Source: an uncultured Oscillospiraceae bacterium (GTDB lineage: Bacteria; Bacillota; Clostridia; Christensenellales; CAG-138). Taken from it: a stretch of DNA of 64,000 bases. Shown here piece by piece: positions 10,877 to 27,461 of the stretch. The number at the start of each line of letters is the position of its first letter. The stretch's first letter is position 1. The stretch covers positions 710 through 64,709 of the forward strand of contig CAZIQO010000002.1 of assembly GCA_964541465.1 (NCBI GenBank). Reading direction: 5' to 3'. The translations under genes and the position numbers were made by a program. A model generated the notes under the pieces. It was not told where the DNA came from. It did not search any database and saw only the letters and a list, made by a program, of their open reading frames with translations.

Positions 10877-10908
10877 GTGATACCTCCTTGTGTGTGTTCC
10901 GTCGCCGC

Positions 10909-11541: not shown

Positions 11542-11552
11542 ATTCATATAGC

Positions 11553-11763: not shown

Positions 11764-12732
11764 TTATTTCTGACAGACGGGAGATTTGCGGTACAGTTCG
11801 ACAAACGCGGGCACCGAGCAGAATTCCTCCCACGTCAGCCCGCACTCGCCAAGCTCGCGCGGGTTCTGAATCCCCTTCTTGTAATCGCCGTGGTAATCCG
11901 AACCGCCGGAGTAGAAAATGCGTCCGTGGACGTGCCGCTCGACGTCCGCCCAGATTTCCTCGCGGGGGCGCTTATCGCGGCAGGTCGTCTTGTCGTAGGT
12001 GTAGCGGATCTCGATTCCGTCGAGCCCGCCCGCGATCAGCCGGTCGATGAACGTCCAGCGCGGCATCGTCTCGCCGCCGGATTCGACCTGCTCGTCGATC
12101 AGGTACGGGTGCGCAAGGATGGCGATTCCGCCCGCGTCGTGCAGAAGGCGGATCACCTTCAGCGCGTCCGGCTTCTTGCGCTTGACGCCGAAATAGGGAT
12201 CTTCGCGCACAAACAGCTTCGCCGCGCTCCAGTCCGGGAAATACCCTTTTTTTGCGAGCAGATCGAAGATGCGCTTCTTCTGCAGATCCCGAAGTTCGAT
12301 CCTCTCGGGCCCGCTGGAAAGCACCTCGTCGAGCGTGATCCGATACCCGCGCTCGTCGAGCCGCCGGATCGTCTCGGCGTAGGACTCGGCCTTGCTGCCC
12401 GAAACCGCCGCCACCTCCGCGAGGATGGCTGCGTTGTTCCAGTCGCATCCGAGGCCGACGATATGGACGTCCTCCACCTGCGTTTCACAGGAGAATTCGA
12501 TCCCGCGCAGCAGGCACAGCCCGCGCGCCGCGGCGCAGGCGCAGATCTCCTCCGTCGTCCCGTCCGGCTTGAGCACCTCGGACGGCGCGATCACGTCGTG
12601 GTCGCTGATCACGACCACCTTGAGATCGCGGCGCACGGCGTTGCGCACAAATTCGTACGGCGTGTCGTTCCCGTCGGAATGGTTCGTATGCGCGTGCATC
12701 TCGCACGGATAGGTCGCCTTGCCGCTGTTCAC
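11764..12732 (-). CDS. PHP-domain metal-dependent phosphoesterase
   Basis: N-terminal CEMHAHTNHSDG and VISDHD motifs of the PHP family. GTG start overlaps the upstream aldolase stop (GTGA). Confidence 0.8.
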   Translation of the reverse strand: MNSGKATYPCEMHAHTNHSDGNDTPYEFVRNAVRRDLKVVVISDHDVIAPSEVLKPDGTTEEICACAAARGLCLLRGIEFSCETQVEDVHIVGLGCDWNNAAILAEVAAVSGSKAESYAETIRRLDERGYRITLDEVLSSGPERIELRDLQKKRIFDLLAKKGYFPDWSAAKLFVREDPYFGVKRKKPDALKVIRLLHDAGGIAILAHPYLIDEQVESGGETMPRWTFIDRLIAGGLDGIEIRYTYDKTTCRDKRPREEIWADVERHVHGRIFYSGGSDYHGDYKKGIQNPRELGECGLTWEEFCSVPAFVELYRKSPVCQK

Positions 12733-13565
12733 AGCTTTACGTCCTCCCCGCCGAAGAGGCGGATATACTTGCTCATTTCATTGCGGCACGCCTCGTAGAC
12801 CGCAAGATCGAATTTCACCGGCGCGATGTCGGTTTTGAGCAGTTCGCGCGCGGTGTTCAGATAGATGTTCTTAAGCGCGGTGGAGATGTTGATCTTGGCC
12901 GCCCCGAGCGCGACGAGCTTATGGAAGGTCTCTTCGGACAACCCCGTCCCGCCGTGCACGACCAGCGGCGTTTCACGCCTGCCGAGCTGTTCCACGAGTT
13001 CGTAGTTGAGCTTGGGCGCGTGCTTGTATACGCCGTGCGCCGTGCCGATGGCCGGCGCGATCGCGTCGATGCCGGAGGCCTTGACGAACGCCACGGTGTC
13101 GTCGTAGTTCGCCGCGCTGCCCGCCCCGCCGGAGATCTCGTCCTCCACGCCGGAGATCACGCCGATCTCGCCCTCGACCGCCACGCCGCGCGCGTGCGCG
13201 TAGCGGACGACCTCGCCGGTCTTTTCGATGTTCTGCTGCAGCGGCAGCGCCGAAAAGTCCATCATCACCGCGTCCCAGCCCGCGTCCACGCAGGCGAGCG
13301 CAAGCGCCGTATCCCGGCAGTGATCCAGATGCAGCGCAACGCGCACACGCGCGTTTTTGCGAAGGATCTGCACCATATCGAAGATGGGCTGAACGCCGTA
13401 GCTCTTGACCGTGGAGCTCGAAGGCTGCAGGATCACGTCCCGCCTGGCCTGCTCCGCCGCCTCGATGATCGCGCGCGCGGTCGAATAGTTCAGGATGTTG
13501 ATGGACGCCGTGCCGGTCCTGGTCCGCTGGCTGTCCCTGAGAATGTCGATAAACAGATTGTCCAT
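12729..13565 (-). CDS. class II ketose-bisphosphate aldolase family protein (FBA/tagatose-bisphosphate aldolase fold)
   Basis: Motifs HLDH, EGEIG, GTAHG and HGGTG. ATG 13565 is preceded by GGAGGAAG. The track ORF up to 13613 is an extension. Confidence 0.85.
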   Translation of the reverse strand: MDNLFIDILRDSQRTRTGTASINILNYSTARAIIEAAEQARRDVILQPSSSTVKSYGVQPIFDMVQILRKNARVRVALHLDHCRDTALALACVDAGWDAVMMDFSALPLQQNIEKTGEVVRYAHARGVAVEGEIGVISGVEDEISGGAGSAANYDDTVAFVKASGIDAIAPAIGTAHGVYKHAPKLNYELVEQLGRRETPLVVHGGTGLSEETFHKLVALGAAKINISTALKNIYLNTARELLKTDIAPVKFDLAVYEACRNEMSKYIRLFGGEDVKL

Positions 13566-13636
13566 GGTTCTTCCTCCATTTGATGCAGGTTCGTCCGCGG
13601 CCGCGCGGCGCATAAAGCGGTTCTGCCCGCCCGCCG

Positions 13637-14608
13637 TCAGAGCCCGAGCCCCCTGCGGTTCACGATAAACGCCGGCTGCTTTCCGGCAAGATAGTCGGCG
13701 ATTCCTTCCGCGGCGGTCATCGCCACGCGCTCCACGCTCTCTTTCGTCAGTCCCGCACAGTGCGGACTTACGATGAGGTTCGGCGCCGAAAAGAGCGGCT
13801 TTTCCAGTTTCGGCGGCTCCGGTTCAAATACGTCCAGCGCCGCGCCGGCAAGCCTGTTGCCGATCAAAGCCGCCGCGAGCGCGTCCTCGTCGACGATCCC
13901 ACCGCGCGACGTGCAGATCAGATACGCGGCGGGTTTGAGCAGTGCGAGCTTCTCGGCGTTCAGCAGGTTCCGCGTGTCCGGCAGCAGCGGCAGATGCACC
14001 GAAAGCGCGTCGCACCCGGTCAGCACCTCGTCGATCGAGGCGCAGAGCGTCACGTAATCCGGCGCTTTTGTGATAAACGGATCGTACGCCAGAACGGGCA
14101 TGCCGAGCGCCGCGTGCGCCATCTGCGCCATCCGGCGGCCGATGTTGCCGTAGCCCAGTACGCCGAGCGTCTTGCCCTGCAGTTCCACAGACTTGTATTC
14201 GCGGCGCGCCTGAAAGTTCCCGGCGCGTACGTTCGCGTCCATGTAGACGATGCGCTTGCTCAGCGCGAGCAGCTGCGAGAGCGCATGCTCGGCCACCGAC
14301 TGCGCGTTTGCCTGCGGCGTATTCAGCACGAGAATGCCGCGTTTCGTCGCCGCGTCCACATCGACGCTGTCCACGCCGACGCCCGTGCGGCTGACGACCT
14401 TGAGCGTTCCGGCCGCGTCCATGAATTCCGCCGTGATCTTCGCCCACGTGCCGATCTGCAGACAGACCGCGCCGCGGCAGGCGGCTAAAAGCTCGTTTGC
14501 GTCGTTGCCCGTCACCACCGTCACGTCGCCGCTGTGCCGCAGGTATTCCACGATGTTCGGATCGGTCCTCTGACCGATCACGATTTTCTTTCCCATTTTT
14601 CCTTTCAC
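13637..14608 (-). CDS. D-isomer 2-hydroxyacid dehydrogenase (phosphoglycerate-dehydrogenase-like)
   Basis: GVLGYGNIGRRMAQMA NAD fold, plus SRGG.VDE.AL and GAALDVF motifs. The start could be GTG 14608 (overlapping the upstream stop) or ATG 14596. Confidence 0.85.
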   Translation of the reverse strand: MKGKMGKKIVIGQRTDPNIVEYLRHSGDVTVVTGNDANELLAACRGAVCLQIGTWAKITAEFMDAAGTLKVVSRTGVGVDSVDVDAATKRGILVLNTPQANAQSVAEHALSQLLALSKRIVYMDANVRAGNFQARREYKSVELQGKTLGVLGYGNIGRRMAQMAHAALGMPVLAYDPFITKAPDYVTLCASIDEVLTGCDALSVHLPLLPDTRNLLNAEKLALLKPAAYLICTSRGGIVDEDALAAALIGNRLAGAALDVFEPEPPKLEKPLFSAPNLIVSPHCAGLTKESVERVAMTAAEGIADYLAGKQPAFIVNRRGLGL

Positions 14609-16056
14609 CTCGTGCTCGTCCGGATGCGAACGTGCTTGACATGCAGGTATTCGTACAGCCCCTCCGGGCCGTGCTCGTGGCCGAACCCGCTGTCGTACCA
14701 GCCGCCGTACGGCGCGTTGATCACGCCGGCGTCCACGTTGTTGATGGCCACGTTGCCCGCGTTGAGCTCTTCGGCAAACCGCGCGGCGAGCGAAAGGCTC
14801 TCCGTATATGCGATGGCGGCCAGACCGTAGCGGCAGTCGTTGGCAAGGCGGATCGCCTCGTCGACCGTATCGAACGGCATCACGCCCACCGCCGGGCCGA
14901 ACGTTTCCTCGCGCATGACGAGCATATCGTGGTTCGCGTCCCGCAGGATCGCCGGTTCGAAGAAATTGCCCTTCTCATAGGCCTCGCCCGCCGGTTTCTT
15001 CCCGCCGCAGACGAGCTTCGCGCCTTTGCCGAGCGCGTCCGCGATATGCGTCTTCACCGTTTCCACGCCCTTTTTCGTGCACATCGGGCCGAGATCGAAC
15101 CGCCCGGTCAGACCGCTTCCGATCGTGAGCGCGCATGTTTTTTCGGCGAACCGCTTCAGGAATTCCTCGTAAACCGGCCGCTGCACGTAGATGCGGTTGA
15201 CCGCGATGCAGATCTGCCCCATGTTCCGGAAGCTCCTGCGCGTCGCGCCGACGGCGGCCGCCTCGAGGTTCGCGTCCTCGCAGACGATCATCGGCAGACT
15301 CCCGCCGAGTTCGAGCGAAAGATGCCGCAACGAATCCACGCTGCCGGCCATGATGGTTTTGCCGACCGACGTCGAACCGGTGAAGGCGATCTTCCTGATC
15401 GACCTGTCGCCAAGCAGATATCCGCCGACCGCGCCGCCGCGCCCGCTGATTACGTTGAGCACGCCGTTCGGAATCGGCGCCTCCGTCATGGCCTCAACGA
15501 ACGCGATGGGGCTCAGCGGCGTTTCCGACGGCACCTTGAGGATGCACGCGCAGCCGGATGCGATCGAAGCGGCCACCTTCCAAGCCATCAGCTCGATCGG
15601 GTAGTTCCACGGGGAGATGCATGCGACCACGCCGATCGGCTGATAGATTACGCTGCTGACGAACTCGCGGCCGGCGGCGTTCGGAATGATGCGCCCGTAG
15701 ATGCGCTCGCCCTCCTCGGCGTAGTAGCGCAAAATCTCGGCACCCTTCTTCACCTCGCCGAGCGCCTCCAGATACGGCTTGCCCTGCTCGGTGGTCAGAA
15801 TCCCGGCGATCTCCTCCGCGTGCCGGAGCACGCCTTCGGACGCCGCGCGCAATACGGCGCCGCGCGCCTGCGGCGTCTGTTTCGCCCAGGCCGGAAACGC
15901 CCGGTTCGCCGCGGCGACGGCGCGCCCGATATCCTCGCCGGACGCGGCGGGGACCTGCCCCGCGCGTTCGCCGTTTGCCGGGTTCTGCACTTCGATGACG
16001 GCGCCGGCGAGCGCGTCGCACCACGCGCCGTCGATGAGCATTCGTTTGTTCCACAT
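14605..16056 (-). CDS. NAD(P)+-dependent aldehyde dehydrogenase (second copy)
   Basis: 483 aa ALDH family with LELGGSLP and catalytic-Cys region FRNMGQICIAVNRIYV. Confidence 0.9.
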   Translation of the reverse strand: MWNKRMLIDGAWCDALAGAVIEVQNPANGERAGQVPAASGEDIGRAVAAANRAFPAWAKQTPQARGAVLRAASEGVLRHAEEIAGILTTEQGKPYLEALGEVKKGAEILRYYAEEGERIYGRIIPNAAGREFVSSVIYQPIGVVACISPWNYPIELMAWKVAASIASGCACILKVPSETPLSPIAFVEAMTEAPIPNGVLNVISGRGGAVGGYLLGDRSIRKIAFTGSTSVGKTIMAGSVDSLRHLSLELGGSLPMIVCEDANLEAAAVGATRRSFRNMGQICIAVNRIYVQRPVYEEFLKRFAEKTCALTIGSGLTGRFDLGPMCTKKGVETVKTHIADALGKGAKLVCGGKKPAGEAYEKGNFFEPAILRDANHDMLVMREETFGPAVGVMPFDTVDEAIRLANDCRYGLAAIAYTESLSLAARFAEELNAGNVAINNVDAGVINAPYGGWYDSGFGHEHGPEGLYEYLHVKHVRIRTSTR

Positions 16057-16071
16057 CGTCGTTTTCTCCGG

Positions 16072-16968
16072 TTATGAAATCAGTCCCGCGCCGCGGAGCG
16101 TGTCCGCGATCGATTGCCGGACCGGTTCCGCAAGCGGAAGCACCGGCAGGCGCGGATACCCGCCGGCAAACCCGGCCAGATCCATGGCGCACTTGACCGC
16201 CGCCACGCCGCCCTTGCCGGAGACCGCGTGATTGAGGCGGACGATCTCGCGGTTGAGCGCGAAGCATGCCTCGTACTGTTTTTCGGCAAAGAGCGTGTAG
16301 AGCTTCGCCGTCATGTCGGGGAACGCGTCCGCCAGCGAGATCACGCCGCCCGCCGCGCCGCCGATCAGCGCGCTGAGAAAGAAGTTGGCGGAGCCCGCCA
16401 GAACCGCGAAATGTTCCGGCGCCGCCAGCAGGTAGGAGTCCATATTGCCCGTCGACGAGTCCTTCATGCCGACGATGTTTCCGTGCTCCGCAAGGCGCCC
16501 GATCAGCGCCGGGGAGAGCGTGATGCCGCCCGTGAACTGCGGCGCGCAGTACAGAAGGCACGGCTTGTGCACCGCGTCCGCCACATCCGTAAAATAGCGG
16601 TACAGCGCGTCGTCCGTCATCAGTTTTTTGAAGTAGCCCGGCGAAAGGAGCGTAAGGTAATCCGCGCCGATGCGCTCGGCCTCCTTTGCAAACCGGATCG
16701 TTTCATACGTCGATTCCGCGATGCAGCCCGCCATGACGACCTGACGCTTCGATTTATTTTTGACGATGATCTCCAGCACGCGGAGCTTCTCGTCCGTGAG
16801 CATATTCTTGTTTTCACCGTTCGAACCGAGCGCGAGGTACCCTTTCAGCGCGCTGGCCGCGTATTTCTGCATGTTGCGCTCGAGACCCGCGTAGTCGAGC
16901 GTGCCGTCCTTGAAAAACGGCGTGGTGATCGGCGCGAACACGCCGCCGAGCTGTTCTTTATGGTTCAT
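16072..16968 (-). CDS. DapA/N-acetylneuraminate-lyase family class I aldolase or dehydratase
   Basis: GVFAPITTPF, LGSNGE and the Schiff-base lysine context VGMKDSS. ATG 16968 has AAAGGAGGAAG upstream. The track start at 16986 is a TTG extension. Confidence 0.85.
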   Translation of the reverse strand: MNHKEQLGGVFAPITTPFFKDGTLDYAGLERNMQKYAASALKGYLALGSNGENKNMLTDEKLRVLEIIVKNKSKRQVVMAGCIAESTYETIRFAKEAERIGADYLTLLSPGYFKKLMTDDALYRYFTDVADAVHKPCLLYCAPQFTGGITLSPALIGRLAEHGNIVGMKDSSTGNMDSYLLAAPEHFAVLAGSANFFLSALIGGAAGGVISLADAFPDMTAKLYTLFAEKQYEACFALNREIVRLNHAVSGKGGVAAVKCAMDLAGFAGGYPRLPVLPLAEPVRQSIADTLRGAGLIS

Positions 16969-17028
16969 CGCTTCCTCCTTTTCCAAGACGCCGGCCGTCC
17001 GGCATTTTATCGGCGCGCGGCCTGCGGT

Positions 17029-17856
17029 TTACTTAACGTACGCGCCCCTGACGAGGTGCTTCTCCTCGTCCCATCCGGCGAGGATCTTCATCGCTTCCGA
17101 AGCCGCGAGGCAGGCACGCGCTTCGCCGCCGTTGTCGCCCCAGCGGTCGGTGCAGCGGTTGGATATGACGGACAGCACCGCGCCCATGCGCATGTTGTGC
17201 AGATACCCGACCACGAGCTGGCCGGCCGTGTCCATCTCGATATTCGTCACGTGCGCCGACTGCAGGTCCGGGATCAGCTTCTCCGCCCACGACGGCCAGT
17301 ACATGGAACCGTCGTCGGAAAGCGGCCGGCCCTGCCCGATGTAGAACGAGCCGACCGAATAGGTCAGGCCGAAGCCGTACCGGAAGCCCAGCCGTTCGCA
17401 CGCTTCCTTGAGCGCCCATACCACATACGTGTTCGCAAACGCGGGGAACGCCGGCTCCACATAGGAATCCGACGTGCCGTCCTTGCGGATGCACGCGACG
17501 GGGATGATCAGATCGCCGAGCTCGAACTCCGGCACGATGCAGCCGGTCGTCCCCACGCGGATGCAGGTATGCGCGCCCACGACGTTGAGCTCGTGGATGC
17601 AGATCTCCGCGCCGGGGCAGCCGATGCCGGTCGACGTCGTCGCAAGCGGCATGCCCTTGTACGTGCCGGTTACGGTTTTATACTCGCGGTAGTAGGCTAC
17701 TTCCTTCACGTTGTCCCAGTTCTTCGCGATGCGCAGCGTGCGGCCCGGATCGCCGGGCAGCAGCACGTATCCCGGGATGTCGCCCTTCTTGAGCCGCAGA
17801 TGGTATACGCCCGTGTTCTCCGCGTGCGGCGCGGAAGCCTTGTTGATCGTTTCCAT
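17029..17856 (-). CDS. PNP/UDP-family nucleoside phosphorylase (uridine-phosphorylase-like)
   Basis: 275 aa with LPGDPGR, STGIG.PG and VGTTG patterns typical of the PNP_UDP_1 fold. Confidence 0.8.
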   Translation of the reverse strand: METINKASAPHAENTGVYHLRLKKGDIPGYVLLPGDPGRTLRIAKNWDNVKEVAYYREYKTVTGTYKGMPLATTSTGIGCPGAEICIHELNVVGAHTCIRVGTTGCIVPEFELGDLIIPVACIRKDGTSDSYVEPAFPAFANTYVVWALKEACERLGFRYGFGLTYSVGSFYIGQGRPLSDDGSMYWPSWAEKLIPDLQSAHVTNIEMDTAGQLVVGYLHNMRMGAVLSVISNRCTDRWGDNGGEARACLAASEAMKILAGWDEEKHLVRGAYVK

Positions 17857-17892
17857 AGTGTATCCCTCTTCCCTTTTCTGTTCTTCGGCGTC

Positions 17893-18330
17893 TTACAGGA
17901 GTCCCGGGCCGTTGCCCTCTTCCCAAGCGAACACCTCCCAGATGTTGCCCTCGTAATCCGCGAAATACGCCGCCCGGGAACCGAACGGGTACGTCTCCGG
18001 CGCGCGCAGGCACTTCACGCCCCGCCCGACGAGTTCGTTGGCAATATCGTCCACGTCCGAAAGGGCCGGTACCTTGACCGCGATCATATAGTGATGTCCG
18101 AGCTCCCCGAGCGCCTCCCGGTCAAGCAGTTCCAGCACACCGTCGATCTGCCACATGGTGACGGCGGTGCCGTGAAAGTCAAATTCGGCGTAATTTGCAT
18201 GCTCCGCATCCGGCTGCAGGCGCTTGACGCGGAAGCCGAATTTCTCGGTATAGAACCGCAGGCATGCGTTGAAATCCTTGACATAGAGACAGATATCGTT
18301 CAGTTTGTTCAGTTTTTCCAAAGCGCTCAT
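17893..18330 (-). CDS. VOC family protein, paralog 3
   Basis: 145 aa beginning MSALEKLNKLNDICLYVKDFNACLRFYTEKFGFRVKRLQ and ending ...NIWEVFAWEEG. Clear paralog of 10463..10876 and 10909..11373. Confidence 0.8.
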   Translation of the reverse strand: MSALEKLNKLNDICLYVKDFNACLRFYTEKFGFRVKRLQPDAEHANYAEFDFHGTAVTMWQIDGVLELLDREALGELGHHYMIAVKVPALSDVDDIANELVGRGVKCLRAPETYPFGSRAAYFADYEGNIWEVFAWEEGNGPGLL

Positions 18331-18352
18331 CGGATTTCCTCCCTTAAAATAA

Positions 18353-19537
18353 TTACTCTTCGCTGTTGGTCTCCGCTGCGCGGAAAATCCGGATCACGTC
18401 CTCCTCGCCGAGCGGGCGGATGCAGCCGATCTTCCCGCCCCCGCAGGCAAGCTTTGCCATGGCGGCGTAGTCCGCATCGGAACGGACGCCGATCTCCTGC
18501 ATGGTCTGCGGCGCGCCGAGCTCGCGGTAGAACGCACGCAGCCGCCGGATGCCCTCTTTCGCGGTCTCCTCCGGGTGAACCCAGTCCGGCTCCGCACCCA
18601 TCACGCGCACGGCAAACTGCGCAAACCTCGGCACGTTGGAGCGGTAGACGTATTCGACCCAGGCGGGGATCAGCACGGAAAGCGTCGCGCCGTGCACAAT
18701 ATTGTAATACCCGCTCAGCTGCGCGCCCATGCAGTGGCTCGCCCAGTCCTGCGCGCGGCCGATGCCGACAAGGCCGTTGTGCGCCACGACGGAGGAAACC
18801 ATCAGTTCGGCGCGCGCGTCGTAATCGGCCGGGTTCTTCAGCACGCGGCGCGCGTTGTGCATGGCGGATACCATGATCGCCTCGCCCATGCGGTCGGTCA
18901 GATCATTTCCGACCGACGAGGAGAAGTACCGTTCCATCACGTGCGAGATCATGTCCACCACGCCGTATACGGTCTGCTTGCGCGGCAGCGTGAACGTCAG
19001 TTCGGGGTCCATGAGCGTAAAGGCCGGCCGGATGACGTCGCTCATGATGTCCCGCTTCTGCTTTGTGGCCATGTTTGTGATCACGGAGCCGTTGCTCCCC
19101 TCGCTGCCGGTCGCGGGCAGCGTCATGATCGTGCCGACCGGAAGCGCCTGTTCGACCGAGGCCTTACCGAGGTAGAGATCCCATACGTCGCCATCGTACG
19201 CCGTGCCGACCGCGACGGCCTTCGCCGTGTCGATCACGCTGCCGCCGCCGAGCGCGAGCACGAACCCCACCTTCTCTTTGCGGCAGATTTCAATTCCCTT
19301 GTACACCAGATCCAGCGTCGGGTTCGGCTGCACGCCGGGCAGCTCGAAGCACCGAAGTCCAGCGCCCTCGAGCGCGTTCATCACGCGGTCCCGCAGCCCC
19401 GAATCGTAGATGAACCGGTCGCCGTAGTGCGTGAGCAGCACACTGTCGCTGTAGCGCTTCACCTCTTCGCCCGCGAGCGCGATTGCCCCGCGGCGCAGAA
19501 TCATCCTTGTCGGCGATACGAACGAAAAATCATCCAT
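18353..19537 (-). CDS. iron-containing (group III) alcohol dehydrogenase
   Basis: 394 aa with GGGSVIDTAKAVA and a His-rich metal-site region (HVMERYF... HNGLVG... H). BdhA/YqhD-like. Confidence 0.9.
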   Translation of the reverse strand: MDDFSFVSPTRMILRRGAIALAGEEVKRYSDSVLLTHYGDRFIYDSGLRDRVMNALEGAGLRCFELPGVQPNPTLDLVYKGIEICRKEKVGFVLALGGGSVIDTAKAVAVGTAYDGDVWDLYLGKASVEQALPVGTIMTLPATGSEGSNGSVITNMATKQKRDIMSDVIRPAFTLMDPELTFTLPRKQTVYGVVDMISHVMERYFSSSVGNDLTDRMGEAIMVSAMHNARRVLKNPADYDARAELMVSSVVAHNGLVGIGRAQDWASHCMGAQLSGYYNIVHGATLSVLIPAWVEYVYRSNVPRFAQFAVRVMGAEPDWVHPEETAKEGIRRLRAFYRELGAPQTMQEIGVRSDADYAAMAKLACGGGKIGCIRPLGEEDVIRIFRAAETNSEE

Positions 19538-19650
19538 GCTCCGTCCTCTCCTTTTCCTCGACTTCTTTCCCCGGCATCCGGGGAGCCGTTTGTTTCATGC
19601 CTCTTTGCCACACGCGGACCGCCTTTCAGCGATCCGCGTTGCTTGATCCC

Positions 19651-20601: not shown

Positions 20602-21740
20602 CAGCGGCTCACCTCCGTTCCGGCGTCCCCTTCTTCGCCCTGCGGCAGCGTTGCAGGTTCGGAAACCGCCTTGTCTTTTTTATACCGTTTCAGCCACTGT
20701 TTGATGTAGGGCGCCGCGAACGTCGCACTGATGGCAAGCACGATGATGGCCTGCACGATGTCCGCCGTAGCGGCCGGAATGTTTGTGATGCGCTGCATGT
20801 TCGTCATGCCGTTGTCGAGGCACGCGAAGAAGAACGCCGCAAAGATACAGCCGATCGGATTGTTGTTGGCCAGAATCGCCACGACGATGCCGGAGAAGCC
20901 GATCTGCGCGGAGTTGAAGAGATTCACAAACCGATGCTGGACGCCGAGGATCATCACGACGCCCGCGATGCCGGAGATGAATCCGCTGACCATCATGACC
21001 TTGAGGATCGCCGTCTTGGAGCGGATGCCGCCGTAGCGCGCGAATTCCGGATTCTCGCCGGTTACCTTGAGTTCGTACCCGAAGCGCATCCGGTTCATGA
21101 CGAAAGCAAGCAGGAACGCGAGCACGATGCCGATATACAGTCCGGTGTTCGCCTTGCCCAGAACGCTCGAAAGAAAGTAGCTCTCGGACACGTATTCGCT
21201 CGAATTGACGATATTCGGCGTCTTGAGCGGGCCGAGGATGACCGCCTCCGTCACAAGCTCCGCGATGAAGTTGAGCAGCAGCGTCGACACGACCTCGTCC
21301 GCGTTCCAGAGCACCTTCATCAGCGCGGGAATCAGCGCGAACAGCATCCCCGCGATCCCGCCGATGAGAAACAGAAACGGGATGCCCACGACGCGCGAAA
21401 GATTCGGCAGCCACAGCGCGACCACCGTGCAGGCGAGCGCGCCCATGTAATACTGACCGTCGATGCCGAGATTGAAAAAGCCCATTTTAAACGGCATGCA
21501 GACCGCGAGCGCCGTGATCAGAAGAAAGATCATGGCCTTGATCGTGCCGCCGAAGTCCTTCACCAGCCCTCTCCCGATTCCGTCGATCACGCTTCCCCAC
21601 GGATAGCCGGAAAGGCCGAGAAACACGGTCGCGAGGACCAGCGCGAGCACGATCAGAACAACTCTTCCGATGACGGAATGGAGCATGTTCTTGAGCTGCA
21701 TCGTCAAAGCCGCTTTTTTCTTTTCCGATAGTTTCATCAT
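20601..21740 (-). CDS. ABC transporter permease (NupP/YufP-like)
   Basis: 379 aa polytopic membrane protein located between the ATPase and the second permease. Confidence 0.85.
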   Translation of the reverse strand: MMKLSEKKKAALTMQLKNMLHSVIGRVVLIVLALVLATVFLGLSGYPWGSVIDGIGRGLVKDFGGTIKAMIFLLITALAVCMPFKMGFFNLGIDGQYYMGALACTVVALWLPNLSRVVGIPFLFLIGGIAGMLFALIPALMKVLWNADEVVSTLLLNFIAELVTEAVILGPLKTPNIVNSSEYVSESYFLSSVLGKANTGLYIGIVLAFLLAFVMNRMRFGYELKVTGENPEFARYGGIRSKTAILKVMMVSGFISGIAGVVMILGVQHRFVNLFNSAQIGFSGIVVAILANNNPIGCIFAAFFFACLDNGMTNMQRITNIPAATADIVQAIIVLAISATFAAPYIKQWLKRYKKDKAVSEPATLPQGEEGDAGTEVSR

Positions 21741-21744
21741 GGCT

Positions 21745-23274
21745 CTACGCCCTCATTTCTTCCGCGGTCATGCGCTTCGCACCCGACATGTAAAGGCCGA
21801 TCTCGCCTTCGCTGACGGACCCGGCGCGGAAGGACGCAACAATCTCCCCTTCGTACATCACCAAAATCCGGTCCGAAAGTTCGAATATCTCGCTCAGTTC
21901 CGCAGAGATCAGCAGAATTCCCGTTCCCTCGTCGCGAAGCTTGAGCAGCTGCGCATGCATGAATTCGATCGCGCCGATATCCACGCCGCGCGTCGGCTGC
22001 GCCGCGATCAGAAGATCCGGATCGGAGTCGATCTCCCTCGCGTAGATCACCTTCTGGATGTTGCCGCCGGACAGCGTTTTGAGCGCGTATTTCGCGCTGG
22101 GCACCTTGATGCCGAACTTCTCGACCAGATTCTCCGCCATCGTGTCCGTCCGCTTGCGATCGAGCACATGGAACCGCGCGTACGGCGCGCGGTAGTAGCA
22201 GTTCAGAATCAGGTTCTCCTCGATGGAGCAGTGCGCCGCGACGCCGACCCGCATGCGGTCCTCCGGGATATGGGAGATGCCGAGTTCCCTGCGCTGACGG
22301 ATGCTTTTTTTATTGATCGGGACGTTTTCAAAATAGAGCTTCCCGCGCAGCGCCGGACTCTGCCCCGCCACGACCTCCTCGATCTCCGTCTGCCCGTTGC
22401 CCTCCACGCCGGCGATGCCCACGATCTCTCCCTTATGCACGGAAAAGCTCACGTTTCGCACGGCCATGAAGTTACGCGCATTCTTGGCGTACAGGTTCTC
22501 CACGCGCAGGACCTCCTCGCCCGGCGCGTACGGCGCGCGCGGCAGATTGCTCTGCGTCACGTGTCCGACCATCAGGTTGGAAAGCTCCCTTTCGTTCGTC
22601 TCCGAAGCCAGCACGCGGCCGGTCACAACGCCTTTGCGCATGACGGTGATCCGGTTTGCGATGGCCAAAACTTCTTTTAATTTGTGCGTGATAAAGATGA
22701 TTGAGCAGCCGTTGCTCTGCAGATTATGAAGAACGCCGAAAAGAACCTTCGCCTCCGGCGGCGTAAGCACCGCCGTAGGTTCGTCAAAGATCAGGATCTT
22801 CGCATCCCGGTAGAGAAGCTTGACAATTTCGATCCTCTGGCGCTCGCCGACGGAAAGCTCGTAAACCTTCACATCCAGGTCCACGTGGAGCCCGTAGCGG
22901 TCCATGATGTCCTCCACCTTTTTGCGCGCCTTTTTCAGATCGATAAGCACCTTGTCGTGCGCGGAATTGCCGAGCGCTATGTTCTGAAGCGCGGTCAGCG
23001 ACGGCGCCAGCATGAAGTGCTGATGCACCATGCCGACCTGATGCCGGATCGCTTCGAGCGCCGTGCGCATCTCGACTTTCTCTCCAAACAGACGGATGCT
23101 TCCGGCATCCGGCTGAATCAGACCGTAGAGGATATTCATCAGTGTGGTTTTCCCCGCGCCGTTTTCCCCGATTAAACCATGGAGTTCCCCCTCCTCGATC
23201 ACCAGATCCACGTGGTCCACCGCGTGTACGTCGCCGAAGCTCTTGTCTATGCCCCTCATTTCCAGCACTTGCAT
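21745..23274 (-). CDS. ABC transporter ATP-binding protein with duplicated ABC domains
   Basis: 509 aa with Walker A GENGAGKTT, signature LSVGERQR and second signature LSGGNIQK. AGGAGGA RBS. Confidence 0.9.
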   Translation of the reverse strand: MQVLEMRGIDKSFGDVHAVDHVDLVIEEGELHGLIGENGAGKTTLMNILYGLIQPDAGSIRLFGEKVEMRTALEAIRHQVGMVHQHFMLAPSLTALQNIALGNSAHDKVLIDLKKARKKVEDIMDRYGLHVDLDVKVYELSVGERQRIEIVKLLYRDAKILIFDEPTAVLTPPEAKVLFGVLHNLQSNGCSIIFITHKLKEVLAIANRITVMRKGVVTGRVLASETNERELSNLMVGHVTQSNLPRAPYAPGEEVLRVENLYAKNARNFMAVRNVSFSVHKGEIVGIAGVEGNGQTEIEEVVAGQSPALRGKLYFENVPINKKSIRQRRELGISHIPEDRMRVGVAAHCSIEENLILNCYYRAPYARFHVLDRKRTDTMAENLVEKFGIKVPSAKYALKTLSGGNIQKVIYAREIDSDPDLLIAAQPTRGVDIGAIEFMHAQLLKLRDEGTGILLISAELSEIFELSDRILVMYEGEIVASFRAGSVSEGEIGLYMSGAKRMTAEEMRA

Positions 23275-23302
23275 GGGGGTCCTCCTAAATGATAAGATGT
23301 GC

Positions 23303-23339
23303 GGGAATGCGCGGACTCGCAGAAGTTCCGCGCATTCCC
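23303..23339 (-). other. intercistronic stem-loop between the binding-protein and ATPase genes
   Basis: 13-bp stem gggaatgcgcgga / tccgcgcattccc with no clear U-tract. This position is typical of SBP-gene mRNA stabiliser/attenuator hairpins. Confidence 0.6.
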
Positions 23340-23372
23340 TTTCCTGTATTTACCTGTTTTTCCGGTGTTTCA

Positions 23373-24515
23373 TCAGCGGGCCAGGATTGCCGCCCAATCC
23401 GGCGTATCGGTGATGAACTCGACCGTCAGCGCGCCGCTTTCAATCTGAGCGAGCGCTTCGTCAACCTTCGTCCAGGCCGCGTCGACAGCGTCCGCCTTGT
23501 CCGGGACCGCCGCCTTGAAGTTCGCGGTTGCTTCGTCGCTGTAGGCCATAATGCCGTCGTCATACCCTACGACCTGGCTGCCGCCCTGCCAATTGCCGGT
23601 TGCCCACTTTTCGACCGCGTTGTAGAGGTCGACGTCGAAGTAAACGACCCAGCACGCCGGGAGGACCGCCTCATAGCCTTCGCTGAGGTTGTAGGACGTG
23701 TCGCCGATGACCAGCACGTCGCCGGCTTCCTGAGCAGCCTCGTACACACCAACGCGCGCAGCGCCGATATCGGTGCCGATCACGTCGCAGCCGACGGCGA
23801 TCATGGCTTCCGCCTTGGTCTTTGCGGAATCGACGTCTTCATAGCTGTTGTTGTAGATGAACTCTACCTGAGCGTCGGGGTTGGCCCACTTTACGCCCTG
23901 CATGAAGCCGTTGGCTTCCGCGTTGGCCGAGGGCTCCTCAGCACCGAGGATGAAACCGACATGGCCGTCCGTAGACATGCTCGCCGCGAGGATGCCCGCG
24001 ATGAACAGGCCCTTCTGGGTCTGCCAGTTGGTCGTGTAGATGTTGTCGTAGCCTTCAATGTTCTGATACAGGCCGACGAACTTCACATCCGGATAATCCT
24101 TGGCGCACTGCATCACCGCTTCGGACATGAACGAGAAGGTGGTGATGATGAGCTGGCAACCTTCCTCGCAGAGCGCGGCGAGGTCGTCGTAGTAGTTGGC
24201 TTCGTCGAGGGACTCGAGCGTCGTGTAATCCAGATTATAGTCCGCGGATACTCTCTGGAGTCCTTCGAGCATCTGGTCGATGGAGCTGCCGTCGCCGAAG
24301 CGCTGGTTCGCTACGAGCGCAATCTTCGGCTTTGCGGTCTCCTCGGTCGTCTCTTCCGCAGGCGCCTCGGTCGTCTCTTCCACAGGCGCTTCGGTCGCTT
24401 CCGTAGCGGTGGTGGTCTCTTCGGATTCGGTCGTTGTCTTGGCGCAGCCGGCAAACATCACCGAAACAAGCGCCAGCGCTAGCAACAGGGCAAGGAATTT
24501 CTTTGCTTCTTTCAT
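23373..24515 (-). CDS. BMP-family (Med/PnrA-like) ABC substrate-binding lipoprotein
   Basis: Signal peptide plus lipobox MKEAKKFLALLLALALVSVMFAGC, a Thr/Glu-rich linker, then a BMP-type domain. GAAGGAGA RBS before ATG 24515. The 616-aa track ORF is an artefactual extension. Confidence 0.85.
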   Translation of the reverse strand: MKEAKKFLALLLALALVSVMFAGCAKTTTESEETTTATEATEAPVEETTEAPAEETTEETAKPKIALVANQRFGDGSSIDQMLEGLQRVSADYNLDYTTLESLDEANYYDDLAALCEEGCQLIITTFSFMSEAVMQCAKDYPDVKFVGLYQNIEGYDNIYTTNWQTQKGLFIAGILAASMSTDGHVGFILGAEEPSANAEANGFMQGVKWANPDAQVEFIYNNSYEDVDSAKTKAEAMIAVGCDVIGTDIGAARVGVYEAAQEAGDVLVIGDTSYNLSEGYEAVLPACWVVYFDVDLYNAVEKWATGNWQGGSQVVGYDDGIMAYSDEATANFKAAVPDKADAVDAAWTKVDEALAQIESGALTVEFITDTPDWAAILAR

Positions 24516-25885
24516 TAGGGTCTCTCCTTCTTTTCGTATTGTTTCAGCGCAGACGGGCCGTACTTTGAGAGAATCCTCTCGCTGGCCGACTCGGCTGCGC
24601 GGAAAACCACAGTTTCGTCGATCGTTCGGACGGCACGTTCGCGCATCACGGCTTTCCCGCGCACAAACGTGTCCGTCACGTCCCTGCCGCAGGCGCTGTA
24701 CGCCAGATCGGACAGGACGTTTTCGTGTACCCCCAACCGCAGGGGACGCATATGGGTCCCCGTTGCGTCCACCAATATGAAATCCGCCGATTTCCCGACG
24801 GTAAGCGTGCCGATTTCGTTCTCCATTCCAAACACGCGCGCGCCGCCGATGGTGGCCGCTTCGAGCGCCTGCCGCGCCGTCATGCTGCGGATCCCCTTCG
24901 TGATGGTCTGCAGCAGCACCGCGTATTTGATCTCCCCGAACATATCGTTCGTATTGTCCCACATTGCGCCGTCCGTACCGAGTCCAAGGATCACGCCGTC
25001 CGCAATGTATTCTTTCAGCGGCGCCACGCCGTCGCAGATCTTCATTTCGCACACCGGCGTGTTGGCCACGGCCACATCGCCGCTCTTCATGAGCGCGCGG
25101 TCCTCCGCGTTTGCGTAAACCGCATGCGAAGCGACGATCCGGACGCGTCCAAGCAGCCCGTGATCCGCCAGAAACCGCATGGGCGTACAGCCGTACTTTT
25201 CCCGGATCAGGCGCATGCGCCACGGCGTCTCCTGCAGATGCTGGGTCACCATGATCCCCCGCGACTGCGCAAGCGCGATCACGCGTTCCATCAGTTCCGG
25301 TTCAAATGTTTCTTCGGCCACGCTCGAAAGCATGGGGAGAAGTCCGTTCCGCCGGCATTCGGCGATGAATTCGTCCAGATATTCCGCCGTGATATGGCCG
25401 CCCGCCGGGTCCAGCGATTTATCGGTGAAGTATTGCTCCGCCAGCGCGCCGCGGATGCCGACCTGATCCATTGCGCGCACCGAAGAAAGCCCCAGCCCCC
25501 AGTACATATGTTCCGCGAGGAACGTCGTGCCGGACCGGACGGCCTCCAGATAAACCAGTTGCCGCGCAGCATACCGTTCCTCGTCGGTAAGGTCACAGCC
25601 GAACCAGCAGTTTTCAAGGAACGCCTCGTTCTGTTCGGCGAGCGTCATATCGTCGCCAACGCCGCGGAAGATCGTCATATCCCCGTGGCAGTGCCCGTTC
25701 ACAAGGCCCGGCATCACGATACGCCCGTCCGCGTCGACCGTCTCCCCCGCCTCCGCGTTTGGCGCATCCCCGGCGGCGAGCGCAGCAATGCGCCCGTCCC
25801 GAACGCCCATCCAGCCGATAAACGGCTCGCACGCGGGTTCCATGGTTACGAAGATTCCGTTTCGTATCAACAGGTCGAATGTCAT
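24515..25885 (-). CDS. amidohydrolase-superfamily deaminase-like protein (ATZ/TRZ, MtaD/guanine/cytosine-deaminase group)
   Basis: Metal-ligand pattern GHCHGD ... HLQE ... GTDG. 456 aa. Stop overlaps the downstream ATG by 1 nt (TAATG). Confidence 0.8.
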   Translation of the reverse strand: MTFDLLIRNGIFVTMEPACEPFIGWMGVRDGRIAALAAGDAPNAEAGETVDADGRIVMPGLVNGHCHGDMTIFRGVGDDMTLAEQNEAFLENCWFGCDLTDEERYAARQLVYLEAVRSGTTFLAEHMYWGLGLSSVRAMDQVGIRGALAEQYFTDKSLDPAGGHITAEYLDEFIAECRRNGLLPMLSSVAEETFEPELMERVIALAQSRGIMVTQHLQETPWRMRLIREKYGCTPMRFLADHGLLGRVRIVASHAVYANAEDRALMKSGDVAVANTPVCEMKICDGVAPLKEYIADGVILGLGTDGAMWDNTNDMFGEIKYAVLLQTITKGIRSMTARQALEAATIGGARVFGMENEIGTLTVGKSADFILVDATGTHMRPLRLGVHENVLSDLAYSACGRDVTDTFVRGKAVMRERAVRTIDETVVFRAAESASERILSKYGPSALKQYEKKERP

Positions 25886-25924
25886 TTTTACCGTTCCTCG
25901 CGCCCGCCCTGCCGGCGGAATTGG

Positions 25925-27247
25925 TCAGGAATTTCTGTCGATCCGCTCGTAGATCAGCGGGCGGTCCGCAATATCGGCGCGCGACTTGCGAAGCGTAATC
26001 GCATGCCGCAAAGCGGGCACGGACTGCTTGAGCTTCTCCGCGTCCGCCGCGAAGGCCTCGCAGAGCGTCTCGCCCTGCCGGACCGCGTCCCCCACCGCCT
26101 TATGGAACACGATGCCGGCCGTGTAGTCGATCTTGTCGTCCTTTTTCGCGCGCCCCGCGCCCATGACCACCGTCGCGCGGCCGATCTCCTCGGCGTTGAC
26201 AACGTCGAAGTATCCGTCGCTCTGCGCCTGCAGCACAATGCTGCAGGGCTGTTCATAGTAGTTCCACGGATGCTCCAGCACATCCGCATTTCCGCCCTGC
26301 CGGCCGATGAACTCCAGGAATTTTTTATAGGCGGAACCGTCGTGCAGCGACTGCTCCGCGCGCGCACGGCACACATCGCGCGTGCCTTTTCCGGCAAGCG
26401 TAAGCATTTCCGTCACAAGCACGAGGCATACCTCGGTCAGATCGGCCGGGCCTTCGCCGCGCAGCGTCTCCGCGGTCTCCATCACCTCGAGAAGATTGCC
26501 GACATACCGGCCGAGCGGCCGGTCCATGCGCGTGAGGATCGCCACGGTTTCCTTGCCGTGATGTTCGCCGATCTGCACCATCAGCCGCGCGACCGCGCGC
26601 GCCGCGTCGAGGTCCTTGAAAAATGCGCCGCTGCCCACCTTGACGTCCAGAACGAATTTGTCCGCGCCGGAGGCGAGCTTCTTGCTCATGATGCTGCTCG
26701 CAATCAGCGGCACGCTGTTTGCCGTGCCGGTCACGTCGCGGATGGCGTAGATCTTCTTGTCCGCGGGGGCCACGTTTGCCGTCTGCCCCGTCACCGCAAG
26801 GCCGATTTCATTGACGTTGCGGATGAATGCCTCCTCCGAAAGCGCAATATTGAAGGAAGGGATCGATTCCAGCTTGTCGATCGTCCCGCCGCCGAAGCCC
26901 AGCCCGCGGCCGGACATCTTGGCGATCTTTCCGCCGCACGCGGCGATGATCGGCGCAAGGATCATCGTGGTCTTGTCCCCGATGCCGCCGGTGCTGTGCT
27001 TGTCCACCTTGACGCCGGAGATACCGGAAAGGTCCAGCATATCGCCGGAGCGCGCCATGGCGTCCGTAAGCTGCGCCGTCTCCGTCGCGTTCATTCCGTT
27101 GATGTAGACGGCCATGATGAACGCCGCAGCCTGATAATCGGGGATCTCGCCGGAGCAGAATCCCTCCACGAACTGCGCAATTTCACTCTCGGTCAGTTCA
27201 TGACCGTTCGCTTTTCTTTCGATAATATCACAGAAGCGCTGCGCCAT
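25925..27247 (-). CDS. pdp: pyrimidine-nucleoside (thymidine) phosphorylase
   Basis: 440 aa. Near-invariant family blocks AAFIMAVYINGM and VDKHSTGGIGDKTT, with full-length architecture. Confidence 0.92.
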   Translation of the reverse strand: MAQRFCDIIERKANGHELTESEIAQFVEGFCSGEIPDYQAAAFIMAVYINGMNATETAQLTDAMARSGDMLDLSGISGVKVDKHSTGGIGDKTTMILAPIIAACGGKIAKMSGRGLGFGGGTIDKLESIPSFNIALSEEAFIRNVNEIGLAVTGQTANVAPADKKIYAIRDVTGTANSVPLIASSIMSKKLASGADKFVLDVKVGSGAFFKDLDAARAVARLMVQIGEHHGKETVAILTRMDRPLGRYVGNLLEVMETAETLRGEGPADLTEVCLVLVTEMLTLAGKGTRDVCRARAEQSLHDGSAYKKFLEFIGRQGGNADVLEHPWNYYEQPCSIVLQAQSDGYFDVVNAEEIGRATVVMGAGRAKKDDKIDYTAGIVFHKAVGDAVRQGETLCEAFAADAEKLKQSVPALRHAITLRKSRADIADRPLIYERIDRNS

Positions 27248-27407
27248 ACTGCCGCTCTCCTTTACTGATGAAGTGAACCAAGCCGTGCCGTCCTGTGTTC
27301 CTCAGCGGTCGCGTTTCCGGTTCGCAAAATGCGCCGAACGATCGCTTCCGCCTGTCGTTTACTGTCTATCGTCTCACCGGCAAACTGCCGGGTGTTTTGC
27401 AAGAGCT

Positions 27408-27425
27408 AACATATGTTCATATGTT
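27408..27425. promoter_or_regulatory. operator-like inverted repeat AACATATG-TT-CATATGTT
   Basis: Perfect 8-bp arms. Lies 7 nt downstream of the pdp -10 element. Its core 14-mer is identical to 11528..11541. Confidence 0.6.
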
Positions 27426-27432
27426 GTTATTT

Positions 27433-27461
27433 ATATTAGCAATCGGCACCGCGTTTGTCAA
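27433..27461 (-). promoter_or_regulatory. sigma-A-type promoter of the pdp/nucleoside operon
   Basis: On the minus strand: TTGACA (27456..27461), 17-nt spacer, TAATAT (27433..27438). Confidence 0.65.

Follow-up and report, generated by a model that had tools for sequence, protein, structure and literature searches.

A predicted 14-gene pyrimidine-nucleoside operon linked to an aldolase–PHP phosphoesterase pair in an uncultured Oscillospiraceae bacterium

The 14-gene unit and its enzymes

A 64,000-nucleotide stretch of DNA from an uncultured Oscillospiraceae bacterium (GenBank assembly GCA_964541465.1, contig CAZIQO010000002.1, positions 710 to 64,709; hereafter the window, on contig C2 of our numbering) was analysed around a 14-gene unit in which nucleoside uptake and phosphorolysis genes stand with a class II dihydroxyacetone phosphate (DHAP)-type aldolase (FBA2), a PHP-family phosphoesterase (PHP) and further enzymes. 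The host assembly comprises 2.7 Mb in 157 contigs and is 84% complete. The operon very probably imports, deaminates and phosphorolyses pyrimidine nucleosides, and the set made up of FBA2–PHP, an iron-type alcohol dehydrogenase (Fe-ADH), a VOC protein and a DapA-family lyase is very probably tied to that function. The 14 co-directional open reading frames (ORFs) run on the minus strand from 27247 down to 11764 behind a sigma-70-like promoter, as follows (domains from Pfam).

27433–27461, minus strand: sigma-70-like promoter of the 14-gene unit (TTGACA-17-TAATAT, TG-extended, 10/12 positions)
25925–27247, minus strand: Pdp/DeoA-family pyrimidine-nucleoside phosphorylase, 440 aa (TIGR02644, 537 bits)
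24515–25885, minus strand: TRZ/ATZ-type amidohydrolase (Amidohydro_1), probable nucleoside or base deaminase, 456 aa
23373–24515, minus strand: BMP/PnrA-family substrate-binding lipoprotein, 380 aa (PF02608; lipobox FAGC)
21745–23274, minus strand: ABC ATPase with two ATP-binding domains (ABC_tran x2), 509 aa
20601–21740, minus strand: ABC permease BPD_transp_2, 379 aa
19651–20601, minus strand: ABC permease BPD_transp_2, 316 aa
18353–19537, minus strand: Fe-ADH, YqhD-like below cut-off, 394 aa; in the conserved set
17893–18330, minus strand: VOC/glyoxalase-fold protein, 145 aa; in the conserved set
17029–17856, minus strand: uridine-phosphorylase-type enzyme (PNP_UDP_1), 275 aa; TIGR01718 below cut-off
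16072–16986, minus strand: DapA/DHDPS-family lyase, 304 aa; below all NCBIfam cut-offs
14605–16056, minus strand: NAD(P)-dependent aldehyde dehydrogenase (ALDH; Aldedh), 483 aa; SSADH-like below cut-off
13637–14608, minus strand: D-2-hydroxyacid dehydrogenase (2-Hacid_dh), PGDH/glyoxylate-reductase-like, 323 aa
12729–13613, minus strand: FBA2, class II (Zn) DHAP-type aldolase, 294 aa (PF01116, 254 bits)
11764–12732, minus strand: PHP-family trinuclear-metal phosphoesterase, 322 aa (PF02811)

Intergenic gaps, in gene order, were 39, −1, 98, 4, −1, 113, 22, 36, 42, 15, −4, 23 and −4 nt, with a maximum of 113 nt, and five start/stop overlaps were counted in the unit. The start of the BMP gene was corrected to the ATG at 24515, which overlaps the amidohydrolase stop codon (TAATG), and the lipoprotein signal read from this start is MKEAKKFLALLLALALVSVMFAG followed directly by the C of the lipobox. 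The FBA2 and PHP genes overlap by 4 nt, through which PHP is predicted to be translationally coupled to FBA2. A first-pass annotation of the window, made from the sequence alone, had described 14 co-directional genes behind a promoter, with small gaps and overlaps; this was confirmed with gaps of at most 113 nt, and each Pfam family that it had named was recovered across the 14 ORFs.

Promoter scanning of 19.8 kb returned 3 promoter-like sites, and shuffled sequences gave 5.0 ± 2.4; because sites are no commoner than in shuffles, the match at 27461–27433 is weak evidence by itself. A perfect 12/12 promoter at 11582–11553, after the PHP stop codon, bounds the unit. No terminator-like site was found on the coding strand in the two largest gaps: hairpins are present and a T run is absent in the 113-nt gap, and in the 98-nt gap a 13-bp GC-rich hairpin (23320–23357, minus strand) lies directly 3′ of the BMP gene with only a partial T run. 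Hairpins behind the binding-protein gene are usual in ABC operons, and this one probably acts on the mRNA as a stabilising or attenuating element, so that more binding protein is made relative to transporter. An Rfam scan of positions 6000–30000 gave no riboswitch or leader family at the gathering score.

Subfamilies were assigned using the curated NCBIfam equivalog cut-offs. Pdp passed its cut-off (TIGR02644, 537 bits against 409) and contains the Glycos_trans_3N, Glycos_transf_3 and PYNP_C domains, and the uridine-phosphorylase-type (Udp-like) enzyme scored just below its own (TIGR01718, 215.6 bits against 280.3). Aligned to Escherichia coli Udp (1k3f, 1tgv), the Udp-like enzyme keeps His8, Arg30, Arg48, Arg91, Thr94, Phe162, Gln166, Arg168, Met197 and Arg223, which we take to be phosphate-, ribose- and uracil-binding residues. 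The sole hallmark change is the replacement of Glu198, presumably a ribose-binding residue, by Asp, and this may reflect an altered sugar preference. Both phosphorylases are assigned to the pyrimidine type because Pdp lies above its cut-off and the uracil-binding residues of Udp are kept. The importer is made up of a PnrA-like lipobox protein, a two-domain ATPase and two BPD_transp_2 permeases; the BMP protein gave remote matches to the PnrA/TmpC/BmpD nucleoside-receptor structures, and the predicted ligand is a nucleoside. For the amidohydrolase, the best NCBIfam matches were all far below cut-off and the closest solved structure was the methylthioadenosine (MTA)/S-adenosylhomocysteine (SAH) deaminase 4f0r (E 2.5e-47).

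The last match bears on a highly improbable alternative, a variant DHAP shunt in which imported 5′-deoxynucleosides (MTA, 5′-deoxyadenosine) would be deaminated to the inosine form, phosphorolysed, isomerised and cleaved by FBA2 to DHAP and acetaldehyde or methylthioacetaldehyde, with Fe-ADH reducing the aldehyde. The amidohydrolase is indeed nearest to MTA/SAH deaminase and 5′-deoxyadenosine deaminase models, but all its scores are far below the cut-offs. Fe-ADH is adjacent, the hydrophobic distal pocket of FBA2 described below would suit a deoxy tail, and the genome encodes MtnA-like isomerases; an MTAP-like/MtnA-like pair, however, is already present on contig C6, along with four PF00596 aldolases in the genome. 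For E. coli strains that possess the DHAP shunt, use of exogenous MTA and 5′-deoxyadenosine as sole carbon sources is reported (PMC12632272). Against such substrates here, both phosphorylases are of the pyrimidine type, the Udp-like enzyme keeping Gln166, Arg168 and Arg223 (uracil) and His8 (5′-OH). A purine or 5′-deoxyadenosine reading of the deaminase–phosphorylase pair was likewise set aside, as weakened by the uracil-binding residues of the Udp-like enzyme.

None of the seven remaining enzymes (Fe-ADH, VOC, DapA-like lyase, ALDH, 2-hydroxyacid dehydrogenase, FBA2 and PHP) reached any NCBIfam equivalog cut-off, so that they could be mapped to no known pathway. Fe-ADH is probably an aldehyde reductase. 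The DapA-family lyase, for which the closest solved structure is human 4-hydroxy-2-oxoglutarate aldolase, is probably a pyruvate-dependent aldolase. ALDH and the 2-hydroxyacid dehydrogenase are absent from the clusters of relatives and are additions specific to the present species. The earlier proposal that the DapA-family and ALDH genes mark a 2-oxoglutarate-semialdehyde route was not upheld: the lyase is nearest to a 4-hydroxy-2-oxoacid aldolase, ALDH is outside the conserved set, and no pentonate or hexarate dehydratase is present.

Conservation of the gene set and of the FBA2–PHP pair

Four species of the same genus (G006, G017, G020 and G021) carry a compact cluster in the order (GntR)-FBA2-PHP-FeADH-amidohydrolase-VOC-BMP-Udp-ABC-perm-perm-DapA, and a truncated contig of G012 shows part of this cluster. 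The content is that of the 14-gene unit minus pdp, ALDH and the 2-hydroxyacid dehydrogenase; the order is shuffled, with enzymes interleaved with transporter genes and a DapA-family gene closing the cluster. Identities of the relatives' proteins to those of the window range from 34% (BMP) to 81% (Udp), with BMP at 34–35% and Udp at 77–81%. Outside the genus, nucleoside-type modules near PHP or FBA2–PHP were found in Lachnospiraceae (loci L049, L071, L084 and L086): in three Mediterraneibacter species an amidohydrolase-BMP-Udp-ABC module lies beside transketolase-DeoR-PHP, and in Diplocloster FBA2–PHP has transporter and amidohydrolase genes from the same families as neighbours. The link between the nucleoside and distal halves is real: despite a different order, the set turns up again in at least four species of the same genus, and the two modules also co-occur in Lachnospiraceae. 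Conservation applies to the set within the genus and not to the exact gene order for which a check had been suggested.

This recurrence bears on a distinctly unlikely explanation, in which the operon is a mosaic: the first six genes and Udp would feed DeoB and DeoC, and the others would form a separate catabolic route (for an acid sugar, a polyol or a conjugate) with no intermediates in common. The presence of canonical deoB and deoC in the genome, the many non-nucleoside contexts of the FBA2–PHP pair, the species-specific addition of ALDH and the 2-hydroxyacid dehydrogenase, and the low identity of BMP to its counterparts in relatives (34–35%) are all as a mosaic would have it. It does not account for the joint retention of the same families, with enzymes interleaved among transporter genes, in at least four further species of the genus, nor for the recurrence of the link in Lachnospiraceae, and no second transporter is found in the operon.

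The distribution of the pair was analysed by a pattern scan of one genome per species, which gave at least 463 loci encoding a PHP relative; the best 80 were analysed by ORF clustering with Pfam and NCBIfam labels on cluster representatives, and partners were counted within 10 kb. In 53/80 loci FBA2 is the gene immediately upstream of PHP, on the same strand (gaps −38 to +141 nt), and in 7/80 the two are fused, so that 60/80 are paired or fused. The fusion proteins are about 596 aa long, with F_bP_aldolase at 4–279 and PHP from 291 (L055:9161-10951 of Eubacterium barkeri, L058, L070, L079, L082, L094 and L097); E. aggregans and Pseudoramibacter are among the fusion carriers. Carriers of the pair belong to Clostridia (Acetobacterium, Eubacterium, Lachnospiraceae, Anaerotruncus), Verrucomicrobiota, Lentisphaerota, Kiritimatiellia and Planctomycetota. 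The partners were:

FGGY kinase (xylulokinase-like, below cut-off): 42/80 loci
GntR/UTRA regulator: 38/80 loci
deoC equivalogs, often 2–5 copies (158.9 bits, cut-off 117.3): 33/80 loci
transketolase: 21/80 loci
HAD phosphatase: 20/80 loci
Fe-ADH: 17/80 loci
TAL-like protein: 16/80 loci
DapA family: 11/80 loci
glycerol kinase with glycerol-3-P dehydrogenase-like genes: about 10/80 loci
nucleoside module: 8/80 loci
RpiB: 5/80 loci

By their family labels, these partners point to (deoxy)pentose phosphate or sugar-phosphate and aldehyde chemistry. PHP relatives are named in databases only as 'PHP domain-containing protein' or 'TrpH', and a literature search on the aldolase–PHP pair, the deoC/FGGY clusters of acetogens and Christensenellaceae nucleoside genes yielded no paper on the pair, of which no member appears to have been characterised.

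FBA2 scored below the cut-offs of two class II fructose-1,6-bisphosphate aldolase models (TIGR01859, 220.1 bits against 343; PRK12857, 210.6 against 423). When 19 family members were aligned to solved fructose-bisphosphate aldolases (FBAs), the motifs HLDH, TAHG, HGGTG and KINIST (N-x-S-T), which hold the Zn ligands, the catalytic Asp and the DHAP-phosphate site, were invariant, and the arginine of the DPR motif was replaced by V, L, I or M in 19/19. PRK is found at this position in the alignments covering the region for Bacillus methanolicus FBA-P (7ncc) and Staphylococcus aureus FBA (4to8), and the housekeeping FBA of the same genome (contig C5) retains DPR. We take the DPR arginine to be the equivalent of E. 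coli Arg331, which binds the C6 (distal) phosphate. Because a hydrophobic residue stands in its place, the loss is suggestive of a ketose-1-phosphate with an uncharged tail as the favoured substrate of FBA2.

PHP scored far below the cut-offs of two models for COG0613 3′,5′-nucleotide bisphosphatase/RNase AM (NF041577, 70.6 bits against 400; NF047791, 69.4 against 375). Its nine metal ligands (H13, H15, D20, H45, E79, H90, H208, D279 and H281) are invariant in 16 sequences and correspond to the trinuclear metal-site residues listed for RNase AM (PMC9410882). The nucleotide 5′-phosphate pocket of RNase AM was represented by Arg107, Arg110 and Arg141, and PHP does not reproduce it: Arg107 and Arg110 align with Ala115 and the invariant Tyr118, in an insertion-domain alignment of low confidence. 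Several insertion-domain Lys and Arg residues are invariant in PHP. Since all nine metal ligands are kept, PHP is predicted to be a competent phosphohydrolase, with a substrate pocket of its own and not the nucleotide 5′-phosphate pocket. In the ESM Atlas, PHP was matched solely to clusters labelled 'PHP domain protein', and a complex prediction for FBA2 with PHP scored 0.00, which counts neither way.

Possible fates of the nucleoside sugar

The sugar of nucleosides is normally assigned to DeoB, DeoC and the pentose phosphate pathway. A genome-wide profile search placed both genes on contigs other than that of the window, deoB at C1:34411-35535 (464.6 bits against a cut-off of 341.2), followed by a punA-type PNP, and deoC at C42:6313-6936 (260.3 bits against 117.3); for ribokinase, the genome search gave no match above cut-off. 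The first-pass statement that deoB, deoC and rbsK are missing from the window is thus correct, and its description of the distal genes as standing 'instead of deoB/deoC' is true of the operon but not of the cell. Five relatives carrying the aldolase–PHP pair also have deoB and deoC above cut-off, plus an IF-2B isomerase. The associated idea of a non-canonical pentose route is retained in part: the modules co-occur and the pair is linked to (deoxy)pentose phosphate genes, but DeoB and DeoC are not replaced.

In the best mechanistic model, which is put forward tentatively and at somewhat less than even odds, some of the pentose phosphate becomes a pentulose phosphate, which FBA2 cleaves to DHAP and a short neutral aldehyde. 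The substrates, the order of steps and the role of PHP are inferred in this model; it is built on the observed gene content, boundaries, conservation, pairing or fusion, and residue patterns. A nucleoside would be imported by the BMP lipoprotein and ABC transporter, a cytosine-type base or nucleoside would be deaminated by the TRZ/ATZ amidohydrolase, and Pdp and the Udp-type enzyme would release uracil or thymine and (deoxy)ribose-1-phosphate. The textbook route would be open through DeoB and DeoC encoded elsewhere. FBA2–PHP, Fe-ADH, VOC and the DapA-like lyase, together with ALDH and the 2-hydroxyacid dehydrogenase in the present species, would provide a second outlet. After isomerisation of the aldose-1-phosphate to the ketose-1-phosphate by one of two MtnA-like isomerases encoded elsewhere, FBA2 would split the sugar-derived phosphorylated pentulose to DHAP and the short neutral aldehyde, in the simplest case ribulose-1-phosphate giving glycolaldehyde. 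Fe-ADH, ALDH, the 2-hydroxyacid dehydrogenase and the DapA-like lyase could then dispose of the aldehyde by reduction, oxidation or condensation. PHP would act in a step next to that of FBA2, where it would most likely take a second phosphate off a bisphosphorylated intermediate.

Five genes in a row on another contig of the genome (G000, C17:17457-22613; about 4458–9614 of locus L116) are paralogous to the operon region. They encode a Pdp2 that is 53% identical to the Pdp of the window, an MtnA-family sugar-1-phosphate isomerase (273.7 bits against a cut-off of 271), a PF00596 DHAP-type class II aldolase and a pair of short-chain dehydrogenases (SDRs) with reciprocal 53% matches to the two SDRs upstream of the operon. 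As predicted from these families, the cluster combines phosphorylase, isomerase and aldolase in a layout of the DHAP-shunt type but with a pyrimidine phosphorylase; we know of no description of a cluster of this type. Its presence makes it plausible that the organism sends nucleoside-derived sugar-1-phosphates through ketose-1-phosphate cleavage, and would provide a source of the isomerase. The MtnA-type isomerase and PF00596 aldolase families were located on C17, C6, C35 and C78, and neither is in the operon. The two IF-2B proteins scored 163.6 and 116 bits against the TIGR00511 (ribose-1,5-bisphosphate isomerase) cut-off of 314.1 and score as MtnA-like instead.

Several points weigh against pentulose cleavage as the function of the pair. 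A second sugar route is not required, because deoB and deoC are present here and in the five relatives. Co-transcription of the 14 genes as one operon is inferred and was not observed. Among the operon genes there is neither an isomerase nor a kinase, a genome-wide search for ribose-1-phosphate kinase not having been made. The loss of the arginine in FBA2 is no proof of a monophosphate substrate, because KbaY-type tagatose-bisphosphate aldolases are likewise without the DPR arginine. The role proposed for PHP is tentative: its nearest characterised relatives, which are very distant matches (E 1e-8 to 1e-14), act on nucleotides and RNA. In other Christensenellales, GntR-FBA2-PHP is accompanied by a small unknown protein and an Opp-type transporter, and sugar enzymes are absent; in a same-genus locus (L026, G022:C1:2407000-2426999) DapA-FBA2-PHP lies inside a peptidase-rich operon. 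Lastly, the frequent partnership with deoC is left unexplained by pentulose-1-phosphate cleavage and fits a triose-level role as well. The L026 operon further encodes M20, S58/DmpA-racemase and M29 peptidases, a beta-lactamase-fold protein, an amidohydrolase, an MFS transporter and an FGGY kinase, with a sigma-54 gene nearby.

A triose-level role is central to the main rival, which we regard as unlikely: FBA2–PHP would be an anabolic aldolase followed by a bisphosphatase, condensing DHAP with glyceraldehyde 3-phosphate or erythrose 4-phosphate and irreversibly removing the 1-phosphate, as with fructose- and sedoheptulose-bisphosphate (FBP/SBP). It would serve triose-level substrates (deoxyribose via DeoC, glycerol, nucleosides, peptides) and, with transketolase, the TAL-like protein and RpiB, would supply hexose and pentose phosphates; in the operon, the pair would act after DeoB and DeoC, leaving acetaldehyde to Fe-ADH and ALDH. 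In known FBP aldolase/phosphatase systems, too, aldolase and phosphatase are fused or adjacent, and the pair follows that logic. The partners (deoC 33/80, transketolase 21, TAL-like 16, RpiB 5, glycerol genes about 10) are better explained by this rival, as is the peptidase-rich same-genus context, but the VOC and DapA-like genes of the conserved set are not explained. The closest solved aldolases are the glycolytic and gluconeogenic FBAs of B. methanolicus, and the characterised relatives of PHP hydrolyse one phosphate of bisphosphorylated ribose; the distal-phosphate arginine is, however, missing in 19/19 FBA2 sequences and its motif is retained by the housekeeping FBA.

Fructose bisphosphatase (FBPase) genes bear on the same rival. 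Profile searches found no class I, II or III FBPase in the genome of the window; among 40 genomes of the genus, class II (GlpX) was found in 0/40 and class III was not found in 39/40, with or without the pair. This lack would suit a bisphosphatase function of PHP, but a class III FBPase is present in 18/26 of the other carrier genomes, and within the genus the pair is confined to a minority; for these two reasons the pair does not fill the place of a missing FBPase. That idea was rejected, the lack being genus-wide regardless of the pair and the distribution uninformative to negative. Gluconeogenesis in the genus via a pyrophosphate (PPi)-dependent phosphofructokinase is a possibility.

With the pentulose-cleavage model as its starting point, a wider proposal is possible, though doubtful: the pair would be the two-step unit of an undescribed (deoxy)pentose phosphate shunt of anaerobic Bacillota and the Planctomycetota–Verrucomicrobiota–Chlamydiota (PVC) group, wired in Christensenellaceae to pyrimidine nucleosides and converting their sugar to DHAP and a C2 aldehyde without phosphopentomutase, transketolase or DeoC, as a bacterial counterpart, from other enzyme families, of a haloarchaeal pathway. 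The haloarchaeal enzymes are reportedly a HAD phosphatase and a fuculose-type class II aldolase. That non-carboxylating pentose bisphosphate pathway (PMC9700705) has features like those of the proposed model, namely a phosphorylase giving ribose-1-phosphate, adjacent phosphatase and aldolase steps, and DHAP and glycolaldehyde as products, with reduction of the aldehyde; unlike the model, the archaeal pathway needs a ribose-1-phosphate kinase and a ribose-1,5-bisphosphate isomerase, neither of which is in the operon. The DHAP shunt (MtnP or MtnN/MtnK, MtnA, Ald2; PMC12632272) resembles the model in leading from nucleoside to sugar-1-phosphate, ketose-1-phosphate, and DHAP plus aldehyde, with a following alcohol dehydrogenase. 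The operon differs from it in its pyrimidine-type phosphorylases, its lack of MtnA, its PF01116 instead of PF00596 aldolase and its PHP partner.

The nucleoside half of the operon resembles the deo/nup-pdp operons (E. coli deoCABD with DeoR; B. subtilis dra-nupC-pdp) and BMP/PnrA importers in nucleoside uptake and in phosphorolysis by DeoA/Pdp-family and Udp-type enzymes; a DeoR-family regulator gene is adjacent, and the lipoprotein is of the PnrA family as in those importers. It departs from deo/nup-pdp operons in leaving deoB and deoC to other contigs (C1 and C42), in having a TRZ/ATZ amidohydrolase in the place of Cdd and in adding seven enzymes that are predicted to be co-transcribed, including an aldolase of another class (Zn-dependent, DHAP-type) and the PHP phosphoesterase. 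With class IIb fructose- and tagatose-bisphosphate aldolases (B. methanolicus FBA-C/FBA-P 7nc7/7ncc, S. aureus 4to8, KbaY 8q57, YdjI 6ofu) FBA2 shares about 40% identity, the Zn ligands, the catalytic Asp-His and the DHAP-phosphate motifs; unlike them, it is below every curated cut-off, has a hydrophobic residue for the distal-phosphate arginine, and in every case a PHP gene follows its gene or is fused to it. PHP has the fold, insertion domain and nine ligands of the COG0613 enzymes (Chromobacterium violaceum Cv1693, a 3′,5′-nucleotide bisphosphatase, 2yb1; E. coli RNase AM/YciV, 7ug9, PMC9410882). It differs from them in its remote similarity (E 1e-8 to 1e-14), in Ala115 and Tyr118 for Arg107 and Arg110, and in the genomic tie of its family to an aldolase and not to RNA or sulfur metabolism.

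Taken against these systems, the nucleoside half is ordinary, and what appears to be new is its conserved coupling to the aldolase–PHP pair (sometimes fused), the wide distribution of the pair and the C17 cluster. Nucleosides are a major source of carbon and nitrogen in guts and sediments. The pair is widespread (at least 463 species-level loci) and is tied to nucleoside modules in two Clostridia families and elsewhere to deoC, kinase and transketolase. Solving its chemistry would assign a function to two large annotation bins, 'FBA-like' and 'TrpH-like', and could show that anaerobic communities have a new source of C2 aldehydes, ethylene glycol or glycolate; cultured carriers include Acetobacterium woodii, Eubacterium limosum/callanderi and Anaerotruncus massiliensis.

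Shared operator box and neighbouring genes

The following features flank the 14-gene unit.

27409–27430, minus strand: operator-like box just downstream of the −10 element, containing ATATGAACATATGT and the palindrome AACATATGTT; repeat family D4
11528–11582, minus strand: next promoter (12/12) with the same operator box, which starts a VOC-VOC-HMGL-like-thiolase-like-DUF35-GntR unit
28346–29146 and 27535 to about 28323, minus strand: two SDR genes upstream of the operon, with their own promoter-like site (Pfam)
29395–30273, plus strand: divergent DeoR-family regulator (HTH_DeoR and DeoRC sugar-phosphate sensor domain; Pfam)
6812–7474, minus strand: distal GntR/FCD regulator gene, a candidate regulator

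The box at 27409–27430 is 86% identical to its copy at 11528–11549 (both repeat family D4), and the ATATGAACATATGT box, with the palindromic core ACATATGT, is found just after the −10 element of two promoters separated by 16 kb. A third promoter-like site (TTGACA-17-TATTAT) with operator half-sites is located at about 29300–29400, before the SDR genes. Because the operator box is common to the promoters, these units are predicted to form one regulon, which implies that the operon is the central unit of a three-unit, three-promoter regulon of about 22 kb (~6812 to ~29400). The DeoR-family regulator is a candidate repressor of this regulon.

The downstream co-regulated unit (window 7520–11493) encodes two VOC paralogs, an HMGL-like DRE-TIM enzyme, a thiolase-like protein and a DUF35/ChsH2-type OB-fold protein; the VOC protein of the operon is 40–44% identical to the products of the two VOC genes (10909–11493 and 10463–10954). 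The whole region looks like a nucleoside-use island. On the far side of the DeoR-family gene, at 31148–37112, lies a LacI-linked operon with a RhaA-type isomerase, an IUNH nucleoside hydrolase, an FGGY kinase and a xylose-isomerase-like TIM-barrel (epimerase-like) protein, and this operon may be a hydrolase-based nucleoside-sugar route that works without ribokinase.

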